From sequence record LR597642: a DNA stretch of 40,019 bases; one strand, 5' to 3'. A program made the position numbers. Of this stretch, positions 30,001 to 33,000 are shown one piece after another. This DNA is from Escherichia phage Evi. The number at the start of each line of letters is the position of its first letter. Position 1 is the stretch's first letter.

Positions 30001-33000
30001 TCGCGATGTACGCACAATCGTTGAGCTGGGAAAAACAATCGACTTTGATGCCAGAACAGTTATTCCATTCGAAGGCGTGCGCCACAATGCACTGGATGAC
30101 GCCCGTTACCAGGCAAAATACGTTTCAGCAATCTGGCAAAAACTGATCCCGAATCCGGTTGATTTTTAATGTTCAACCCTGATCGCCGTCTCCAAATTAT
30201 ATTGGCGGCGGTCATGCTGTAAGGCACGTGACCACATGTACGAATTAACTCTATCGCCAGCAGAGATTCAAGAGATCACGAGATACGAGCGATACACAAG
30301 ACAGCAACATCAGCTAAGGCTGCACGGCATCCCGTTTGTAATCGGACCTAAAAACGAACCAATAGTTCTTCGCCGGGATGTTCCGCACGGGCTGACAGCA
30401 ATGTCGAAAATATCTGAACTGGTTTCTGCTGAACCCGATTTTGAGGCGCTGAACAATGGGAAGACCAAGAAAAAACAAAAAAGATAATGCACTGCCACCA
30501 CGTGTTAGATCGAATGGTTACAGTTACGTATGGAAACCCGAAGGAAGCACAAGAACTATAGGACTCGGTAGAGTGCGGGAAACCAGCGTGGCTAAAGTCT
30601 GGCAAAATTATGAACTGGAAAAAGCAAAACTTCACAATATAATGACCGTCGCTAAATTATGGCACATGTTTATGGACTCCCCTGCATTTACAGAACTGGC
30701 ACCCCGAACCCAAAAAGATTATCAGCAACATCAAAGGGCATTGCTGGCGGTATTCGGAAAAGTACTTGCTGATAATGTAAAAATTGAGCAGGTAAGAATT
30801 TTCATGGATAAACGAGGACTCGAGAGTAAGACCCAGGCAAACCATGAACTGGCAAGTCTGAGCCGTGTATACGGATGGGGGTATGAGCGTGGGTATGTGA
30901 AAAATAATCCATGCAAAGGAGTCAGAAAATTCACGCTTAAAGCCCGTACTGTTTACATCACCGATGAACAGTATGCTGCGATATATGCGGAAGCAATTCC
31001 ACAGTTACGTATTGCAATGGAGATATCCTATCTTTGTGCTGCAAGGCTCGGTGATGTACTCGAGCTGAAATGGCAGGATATTATGGATAAAGGGATTTAC
31101 ATTGAGCAAAACAAGACCGGCACTAAACAAATCAAGGAATGGTCTCCACGATTACGTACGGCGATCCAGTTAGCCCGAAATGTATCTTCCGGCACATGCG
31201 AGTATGTGATCAACACAACCAAAGGCGGGAAGGTAATAGCCAAGACGCTGAACAACTGGTGGAATCAGGCTAAACGTGCAGCCGAGCAAAAAGCCGGCGT
31301 TCCGTTTGGGTGCAACTTCCATGACATAAAAGCCAAAGGGATTTCAGATTACGAAGGCAGCAGTCGCGACAAACAAATTTTCAGTGGACACAAAACAGAA
31401 AATCAGGTGTTGATTTACGATCGTAAAACCAAAATCACCCCAACACTGGATTTGCCGCTTGTGGTCAGTAAGTAGGCAATCCAGAAAATTTTCTGGCAAA
31501 AAGACTTGGTATATTAACTCTGAATAACTCCCTAATATCTTGATTTTTCTTGGTGTTAAGTCTGATTAACTTTTCAGCCATTTTGCGTATTATACTGATT
31601 TTTCTTTATTTTTCTTCGGTCTTGAAAACCGGCGACCCGAAAGGGTTCCAGAGTTCGAATCTCTGCGCTTCCGCCAAATAATCAAGGGGTTACCAAATGG
31701 TAGCCCCTTTGCTTTTTTGGCTCTTGGTATAAACTTGGTATACCAATTGGTATATTTTTATTCGGATGAGATTATCGGTCATGAGCGGAACCTCAGGTTC
31801 CTCGTCTAATGCCGCTCTTGCAACACGTTACGCTGCCGAGTATTTTTGTAAAACATGGACTGCTCCAGGCCTGAACCAGGCAGAAGGATACAAAGCCATC
31901 TCAGATCTGTCGCATCACTATTTTCGTGCAGAAGGCTCTAGCCCTCCCCAATCTTTTTTGTGATACCCTGTTTCACTGAACATGAAGACACTCACCTTGT
32001 CCCTGATATTCATTAGCATCATCCTGATTATTTAACTTCTCTATTTAGGGAAGCCCGTCTGATACAAAGCTTCTATTCCTCGTTAAATATTCTCCATTCT
32101 GGCGCCAAGCCCTATCTATAGTTGATTGAAAACAACTCTAAAAACGTAATAATATCAAATAGTTTATTCCTACAGCCGATCATTTTGAGTAAAATATTGA
32201 CGAGAATTTCACAAAAGGTAGATTTCATGTAAACGGATAAATAAGACTATCCAATAAAGCTCTTATAAGGTTATCTATATGATAAATAGCATTAATTCTT
32301 TTTTTTCCGGCCTTCCTCGCAGTATATCAAGTGCTATACGCAGCAGTACCTTCACTGTCTCGCAGCACAAAAGCACACCTAACACGGTAAAAACCAGCTC
32401 ACCTTTTTCTCCCAGCAACAGTCCTGCCAGTGCAACAACTATTTTTAAGGTAAAAAATTCTTATACAGAATCAGGACTTCAACGTCCCACATCTTATACT
32501 CAGTCAAGTATAGAAAAAAACGCTTTACATCGGCCTCTACCTGATGTGGCTCAGCGTCTGGTGCAGCATCTTGCAGAGCATGGCATTCAACCAGCACGGA
32601 ATATGGCTGAACATATTCCTCCGGCACCTAACTGGCCTGCGCCAACGCCGCCGGTACAAAATGAACAATCAAGACCTCTGCCTGATGTGGCTCAGCGTCT
32701 GGTGCAGCATCTTGCAGAGCATGGCATTCAACCAGCACGGAATATGGCTGAACATATTCCTCCGGCACCTAACTGGCCTGCGCCAACGCCGCCGGTACAA
32801 AATGAACAATCAAGACCTCTGCCTGATGTGGCTCAGCGTCTGGTGCAGCATCTTGCAGAGCATGGCATTAATACATCTAAGCGCTCGTGATTATAATACA
32901 ATTACCTGTATTAGCTCTGACCTGACAGTTACCGGTTATTTATACAGGTATCTGTCAGATTACATCTAACCAACAAAAAACCGGAGCCGGACTCCGGTTT

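Follow-up and report, generated by a model that had tools for sequence, protein, structure and literature searches.

A probable lambda-type attP at a serT fragment in the genome of Escherichia phage Evi

In phage lambda, a heterobivalent tyrosine integrase (Int) acts at a phage attachment site (attP) that carries the arm-type sites P1, P2 and P'1-3, two of them on the P arm, along with the sites H1, H2 and H' for integration host factor (IHF). For integration into tRNA genes, a sublocation class at the anticodon loop was reportedly defined by Williams in 2002. Closer to the integrase considered here, that of phage ST64B (IntA) recombines attP with the bacterial site (attB) in vitro (PMC12455584). 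Tandem prophages at a single att site have been described for Escherichia coli of the Shiga toxin-producing (STEC) and enteropathogenic (EPEC) types (PMC8112680), prophages at serT have been reported from O121:H19 and E. albertii (PMC8767318, PMC10673567), and in the TccP2-carrying prophage Sp4/CP-933M of E. coli O157:H7, tccP2 adjoins the phage end (PMC2884950). Here, we analyze a stretch of 40,019 nt from Escherichia phage Evi (record LR597642), referred to as the window, in which an integrase gene (int) is followed by part of a tRNA-Ser gene with short repeats on either side. We put at roughly 0.8 the probability that the segment from ∼31500 to 31758 is the complete attP of a lambdoid temperate phage of HK97 size (40,019 bp), recorded in its closed circular form.

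Composition of the att site

The window integrase aligns with lambda Int (1z1b, E 4e-18) over residues 1-318 of 339, and the alignment takes in the N-terminal arm-binding domain (residues 1-60). Given this homology, arm sites are to be expected. The int stop codon comes one base before the region singled out by the initial annotation (31476-31760), and the tRNA-Ser fragment begins 141 nt after the end of the int open reading frame. As that annotation had stated, the 3' ∼60 nt of a tRNA-Ser gene are found here with no 5' half: positions 31617-31676 match the last 60 nt of E. coli K-12 serT (tRNA-Ser UGA) exactly, and in the comparison with K-12 the 28 nt 5' of 31617 show no relation to the serT 5' half. 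ARAGORN called no tRNA at 31617-31676, as expected for a fragment. Together with the AATAA that follows, the fragment makes up a 65-nt block of identity with the K-12 attB (31617-31681), and this block is matched exactly at every attL and attR locus examined. It extends from the 5' strand of the anticodon stem to beyond the CCA at the tRNA 3' end; it follows that the tRNA gene would be restored upon integration. Indeed, at a Salmonella attL of the same kind (L112), serT is called as a complete gene.

We then compared four types of att site. In the empty site of K-12 (attB), the serT 5' half is followed by the core, AATAA and the host terminator (GATAAGGGGTTAGCTAAATGCTAACCCC), and then by yccA. 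Among the matches listed, 10 loci with an identical integrase (L012-L021) are of the attR type, with the left arm of the window, the core and the host terminator, and then yccA or, in L019, an insertion sequence (IS). The attL set consists of nine loci with an identical TccP2-type protein (L022 and L024-L031) plus the E. albertii type strain (L003); in these, hyaA and a complete serT are followed by the right arm of the window, an arrangement that places the identical TccP2-type protein after serT in single lysogens. The window itself has left arm, core and right arm (P-core-P'), the right arm comprising its own diverged terminator and then three repeats. Among species-representative genomes (GTDB), the sole exact match to the P' arm is the attL of the E. 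albertii type strain. Neither arm is present in the empty K-12 site, and the repeat motif TTGGTATA is absent from it. This absence, and the fact that the DNA from 31682 onward is phage DNA, argue against the possibility, raised by the initial annotation, that the sequence beyond the fragment is conserved host chromosome. Hence, four features by which a lambda-type attP is recognized are found here: a recombinase with an arm-binding domain, a core identical to attB, arms that are split in lysogens, and arm-type repeats, unlike the core, on both sides.

The anticodon loop (CTTGAAA, 31621-31627) is the probable overlap (crossover) region, as judged from the fixed offsets of the arm sites from the loop and from the left limit of tRNA identity. 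This identity starts at CGGT, 4 nt 5' of the loop, in the window and in the related phages Chris1, ST64B and KpF5 (see below), and at GGT in BUCT708. The genes serT and serU have a common anticodon stem, and their loops differ by one base. A contig of 4.6 kb from IMG/VR (L096) shows a break inside the anticodon loop: at ∼3640-3792, the P arm and CGGTCT are followed by DNA 100% identical to 15365-15489 of the prophage array of E. coli 2013C-3492 (L119), i.e. to the late region of another prophage. This contig could be chimeric, or it could reflect a secondary-site or rearrangement event. We rejected it as too uncertain for crossover mapping, given its size and the presence of DNA from another prophage.

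The terminator of the right arm, taken here as 31684-31709, has a predicted free energy of -20.7 kcal/mol (z -4.4), and the phage and K-12 terminators differ by paired changes in the stem (GCTAAATGC to CCAAATGG). Rfam returned MicX only, below threshold (E 0.19), a hit produced by the terminator, and we discarded it. We also set aside two IMG/VR integrases (L107 and L109, 76-78% identical), as no serT fragment lies ≤500 nt 3' of int in either; in these members of a fairly close clade, the att site is probably another one.

Probable arm-type repeats and their conserved spacing

Repeats upstream and downstream of the fragment, in part palindromic, had been reported in the initial annotation, and they are indeed present at 31505, 31723, 31734 and 31746. 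Three of the four copies read CTTGGTATA and the fourth reads ATTGGTATA. Their common motif, TTGGTATA, has one copy upstream (31506) and three copies downstream (31724, 31735 and 31747), with none elsewhere in the window. A perfect palindrome, TTGGTATACCAA (31735-31746), contributes one match on the minus strand, giving five matches in 40 kb, all inside 31506-31754, compared to 0.82 expected; 0/100 shuffles reached five. The upstream copy corresponds to a putative P1 site and the downstream copies, spaced by 11 and 12 bp, to putative sites P'1-P'3, which are found in the attL of single lysogens and are missing from attB. P1 is kept in all P-arm variants except L074 and L080 from IMG/VR, both of which have CCTGGTATA. 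In L074, the P' arm has a single CCTGGTATA only, after a terminator that resembles a host/phage hybrid. We hold a second P-arm site, CTTGGTGTT, with low confidence, owing to its two mismatches and its partial conservation among P-arm variants.

To place these repeats in a wider context, we drew on protein searches of sequenced phages, which yielded relatives with integrases 50-59% identical to that of the window (Citrobacter phage Chris1, E. coli phage 606R7, phage BUCT708, Klebsiella phage KpF5 and Salmonella phage ST64B). These five, together with the Salmonella attL, whose integrase was not seen, provide six further att sites. Each site was oriented by its tRNA fragment, and repeat centres were measured from the centre of the anticodon loop (Table 1).

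Table 1. Arm-type repeats in the window and six further att sites (offsets in bp from the anticodon-loop centre)
Site	tRNA gene	Repeat motif	P arm	P' repeat centres
Window	tRNA-Ser UGA	TTGGTATA	-114	+104, +115, +127
Chris1	tRNA-Ser CGA	TTGGTATA	-114	+105, +116, +129
Salmonella attL (L112)	tRNA-Ser UGA	TTGGTA[CT]A	no phage P arm (attL)	+105, +116, +129
606R7 (attL)	tRNA-Ser CGA	TTGGAAT	no phage P arm (attL)	+104, +114, +127
BUCT708	tRNA-Ser UGA	TTAGAAT	degenerate GAAAGAATA at about -114	+104, +115, +128
ST64B	tRNA-Ser CGA	TGAGAAAA	-113	+105, +115, +128
KpF5	tRNA-Ser CGA	TGAGAAAA	-113	+105, +115, +128

Repeat positions are constant to within 2 bp across these sites, and the motif varies with the integrase, the most divergent motif pairing with the most divergent Int N-domains (ST64B and KpF5). 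The palindrome seems incidental, since relatives do not keep it: in Salmonella the spacer reads CTCAG, and Chris1 and BUCT708 also differ. Similarity among variants stops right after the third repeat (L053, L104 and L112), and cargo differs in the close variants L053 and L104. An attP with a tRNA-Ser fragment only, adjoining int, is present in the sequenced phages Chris1 and ST64B (both circular records) and BUCT708. The last of these (OM816834.1, 'Stenotrophomonas phage vB_SmeS_BUCT708') has 59 nt identical to E. coli serT at 2504-2562, in an attP next to an integrase that is 54% identical. This suggests that its natural lysogenic host is probably an enterobacterium, or else that the host label is doubtful.

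These data indicate that the TTGGTATA repeats are very probably integrase arm sites. Could they instead serve the effector cargo, as operators or promoter elements, or be AT-rich repeats that arose by chance? The triple cluster does lie upstream of the EspV/TccP2 cargo, and the role of the repeats has been read from sequence comparison. Yet their offsets from the loop are kept in phages with unrelated cargo and where int follows the repeats, a further copy sits on the other arm at -114, the motif tracks the integrase N-domain, and similarity among variants ends after the third repeat despite the differing cargo. We consider this alternative highly improbable, the least likely of those weighed here.

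On the tRNA 3' side, the int stop codon of Chris1, ST64B, KpF5, 606R7 and BUCT708 is next to the triple cluster. The window has int on the 5' side, where it adjoins the single-copy arm. Thus, relative to int, the att module is inverted between the window and these five relatives, which implies that the corresponding prophages lie in opposite orientations relative to the tRNA gene.

Perfect matches to the IHF consensus (WATCAANNNNTTR) occur between arms and core in the window, at -85 and +62, and are called on consensus only. Matches with no more than one mismatch are found at -85 in L053, L072, BUCT708, Chris1 and KpF5, and at +62/63 in L053, Chris1, ST64B and KpF5. Across the family, IHF-consensus matches recur at -85, -30 and +62/63. 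Taken together, the repeats, the IHF-like sites and the tRNA boundary point to a lambda-type intasome with the anticodon loop as its overlap.

Closure of the genome and other possible origins of the junction

When the last 1500 nt of the window are joined to its first 1500 nt, the resulting 3000 nt are 100% identical, without gaps, to contiguous DNA of two independent genomes (L004 and L007), the latter matching the window on either side of the join. The join falls inside tail gene K, whose GTG start is at 79; the gene leaves the window at base 1 and is taken up again, in frame, at base 40019. Because this join is seamless, we conclude that the window is one closed phage genome of 40,019 bp, and hence that the tail and effector DNA to the right of the att site belongs to the same phage, reached around the circle. 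The initial annotation had assigned that DNA to another lambdoid element; the closure of the ends does not bear this out, nor does a self-comparison of the window, in which no phage module is duplicated. A circular phage genome that is read linearly makes its attP look like a junction of two elements.

The gene order is that of the lambda vegetative map across attP. Tail genes (L at 84-782, the tape measure protein gene and others) are followed by HK97-type head genes and terminase and by lysis genes; then come three tRNA genes, the early region, exo, a DUF4224 gene, int and att; and the window ends with the EspV fragment, the TccP2-type gene, tail fibre, Lom, J, I and K. The tRNA genes, which ARAGORN identifies as Arg(TCT), Lys(TTT) and Met(CAT), occupy 16589-16830 on the minus strand, in the late regulatory region. 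Beside the immunity region is a likely PaaA2-ParE toxin-antitoxin pair (∼24724-25195, plus strand), as judged from the gene calls of L016, which is 99.9% identical to the window over 20488-25984.

Two lambdoid prophages in tandem at serT, in a bacterial chromosome, would also leave a P-core-P' site at their middle junction. Such an arrangement could arise if a second phage recombined with the attL or attR of a resident prophage, leaving a complete P-core-P' in between. Arrays of this kind exist: int and the TccP2 cargo are adjacent in 26 of 5,426 complete E. coli genomes, and in E. coli 2013C-3492 the whole array can be followed from hyaA, a complete serT, EspV', TccP2, prophage 1 and int through P-core-P' to EspV', TccP2', prophage 2, an IS600-broken int and yccA. 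In this strain (L119, 31201-34708), the int gene of the yccA-proximal prophage is split by two IS600 copies, such that only the int of prophage 1 is intact. For the window to come from such an array, however, two identical copies would be needed, and the window would have to be exactly one repeat unit long, without a base more or less, since its ends meet at the same nucleotide in gene K. Besides, no module occurs twice, and the window contains no host gene and no outer att site. We therefore regard a chromosomal tandem junction as unlikely. Of the two layouts that the initial annotation had offered, attP or the middle junction of tandem prophages, the comparison of att sites upholds P-core-P', while the joining ends speak against tandem elements.

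It is also conceivable that a single integrated prophage was wrongly circularized during assembly, through the 65-bp direct repeat shared by attL and attR, in which case P-core-P' was never a molecule. With small k-mers, an identity block this short could collapse, and the presence of a 122-nt inverted duplication in the cos region is a hint of difficulties in assembly. On the other hand, a collapsed repeat normally breaks contigs at that point and does not yield a closed circle that starts in gene K. The site has a clean single core and no host remnant, and junctions in finished chromosomes share its single-core layout, its core and its P' arm, with a P-arm sequence that differs somewhat. An artefact of this sort seems less likely still than a tandem junction.

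Several observations weigh against our interpretation of the site as the complete attP of a circular phage genome. Circularity is deduced solely from the exact closure of the ends. There is a single clear P-arm site in the window, and the IHF-like site of relatives at -30 has no match in the window. Arm binding and recombination by this integrase are inferred through comparison of sequences. Finally, the inverted duplication just mentioned, a perfect repeat of 122 nt (12623-12744 and 12854-12975), lies in the terS-HNH region. Its second copy replaces ∼180 nt present in chromosomal relatives (as compared with E. coli EC12), namely the terS-HNH intergenic region, where cos probably lies, together with ∼24 codons from the end of the HNH endonuclease gene. 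An A8/T8 run marks the junction of the repeat, and the coverage of 12300-13300 by any complete E. coli genome does not exceed 89%. This duplication may represent imperfect (fold-back) assembly, or else a rearrangement that leaves the phage packaging-defective.

In complete E. coli genomes from RefSeq, the best matches to the window are ∼91-97% identical and mosaic, with local bests of 95-97%, and the closest pieces come from OZ040762.1. No full match was found among GenBank phages or PLSDB plasmids, the exact junction was absent from a scan of IMG/VR and JGI metagenomes, and the exact J protein of the window is not on record. One tentative explanation, which we think possible but favour less than not, is that the window represents an excising or replicating TccP2-converting phage captured as a free circle. 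If so, E. albertii and E. coli would have in the circle a live vehicle by which a type III effector moves between them, and an intact attP would permit repeated integration at serT, giving rise to tandem, effector-accumulating arrays such as are seen in EPEC and STEC.

Proposed integration model and comparison with known systems

A simple model for the action of the site can be proposed along lambda lines. The C-terminal domains of the integrase would bind the core, i.e. the serT anticodon stem-loop CGGT-CTTGAAA-ACCGG, while the N-terminal domain would bind the TTGGTATA arm sites P1 (-114) and P'1-3 (+104, +115 and +127). By bending at the IHF-like sites (-85 and +62), the arms would come to lie on the core. 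Strand exchange would take place in the 65-bp identity block, probably in the 7-nt anticodon loop, and the phage would thereby enter serT. At attL, the 60-nt 3' half carried by the phage, along with its own terminator, would rebuild a working serT, so that after integration the gene would be complete and terminated ahead of the effector cargo; the displaced 3' half of the host serT would stay beside int at attR. Excision would probably be directed by the DUF4224 protein.

Coordinates of the site and its neighbours are collected in Table 2. The DUF4224 gene also lies directly 5' of int in ST64B, where it is annotated as an excisionase (Sb29), and in KpF5, 606R7 and BUCT708; in Chris1, the annotated int open reading frame extends upstream across the corresponding position. 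On this basis, the DUF4224 protein is a probable excisionase or directionality factor. On the other side of the site, the EspV fragment has no Pfam match. The TccP2-type protein has an N-terminal secretion region (MINSINSFF), followed by two full EspF repeats and a partial third, and a promoter-like site (32126-32153) lies 5' of its gene.

Table 2. Features at and around the att site of the window
Feature	Coordinates	Strand	Details
Tail gene K, 5' part	1..79	-	GTG start at 79
DUF4224 gene, 83 aa	30236..30487	+	Pfam PF13986, E 8e-10; overlaps int start
Tyrosine integrase gene (int), lambda Int type, 339 aa	30456..31475	+	PF00589
Arm-type site P1, putative	31505..31513	+	CTTGGTATA; centre 114 bp 5' of anticodon-loop centre
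IHF-consensus match (consensus only)	31533..31545	-	AATCAAGATATTA at -85; perfect match to WATCAANNNNTTR
Second P-arm site, weak candidate	31549..31557	+	CTTGGTGTT; 2 mismatches
Core, putative	31617..31632	+	Anticodon stem arms CGGT/ACCGG around 7-nt loop CTTGAAA
IHF-consensus match (consensus only)	31680..31692	+	AATCAAGGGGTTA at +62; perfect match
Phage-borne intrinsic terminator	31684..31718	+	11-bp stem, then T run; diverged copy of serT terminator
Arm-type sites P'1-P'3, putative	31723..31754	+	CTTGGTATA (31723-31731), CTTGGTATA (31734-31742), ATTGGTATA (31746-31754); centres +104, +115, +127
EspV effector pseudogene fragment	31766..31963	+	Homologous stretch of 2013C-3492 is partial EspV in RefSeq
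TccP2-type type III effector gene, 203 aa, apparently intact	32279..32890	+	EspF repeats, E 5e-78, 3 stretches
Tail gene K, 3' part	39355..40019	-	Gene crosses the record ends

With respect to cargo, the phage is of the TccP2-carrying kind reported as Sp4/CP-933M. In EDL933, the match to the window (H48) has the att core as its exact starting point and extends into tccP2, the pattern of an attL, and the annotation of ST64B describes its integrase as resembling that of CP-933M. In Sp4, which we liken to the window through the EDL933 match and the published description (PMC2884950), the tccP2 cargo likewise lies beside the phage end. The two differ in that the window matches E. coli at only ∼91-97%, in a mosaic fashion, with its closest pieces in other genomes (OZ040762.1). 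The tandem arrays exemplified by 2013C-3492 share with the window the layout of the junction between int and the EspV'/TccP2/tail-fibre end, as well as an identical core and P' arm. In these arrays, however, two different prophages flank the junction and the chromosome also holds the outer attL and attR, whereas the window closes on itself as a single genome.

The five related phages resemble the window in their tRNA-Ser fragment, which starts from the anticodon stem, and in the equal offsets of their triple repeats; their attP sites have a P-arm copy at about -114, and in ST64B, KpF5, 606R7 and BUCT708 a DUF4224 gene precedes int. They differ from it in arm motif, save for Chris1, and in target, which is serU (CGA) save for BUCT708. 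In this integrase family, a rigid frame (-114; +104, +115, +127; loop overlap) may go together with a changeable motif, a choice of serT or serU as target, and a changeable orientation of the att module. Among the cargo of the family in pathogenic E. coli, E. albertii and Salmonella are type III effectors. A precise map of its core, arm and IHF-like sites is provided here for a widespread group of integrases that target tRNA-Ser genes, and this map explains how effector-bearing prophages can build up as tandem arrays at serT and how such arrays can be resolved. The arm-site map and its family-wide conservation appear to be new detail.

Viewed against lambda, the site is a standard lambda-type attP in a tRNA gene and not a new kind of system. 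As in lambda, both arms bear direct repeats that differ from the core, and on one arm three of them follow in tandem, each about a helical turn from the next; sites matching the IHF consensus lie between arms and core; int abuts the site with its 3' end; and the likely excisionase is encoded by a small gene 5' of int. Unlike that of lambda, the core is provided by the anticodon stem-loop of a tRNA gene, serT, whose 3' half is part of the site along with a terminator. The arm motif is TTGGTATA and not that of lambda, one P-arm site only is clear, and the triple cluster is found beyond the core as seen from int, at 104-127 bp from the probable crossover.

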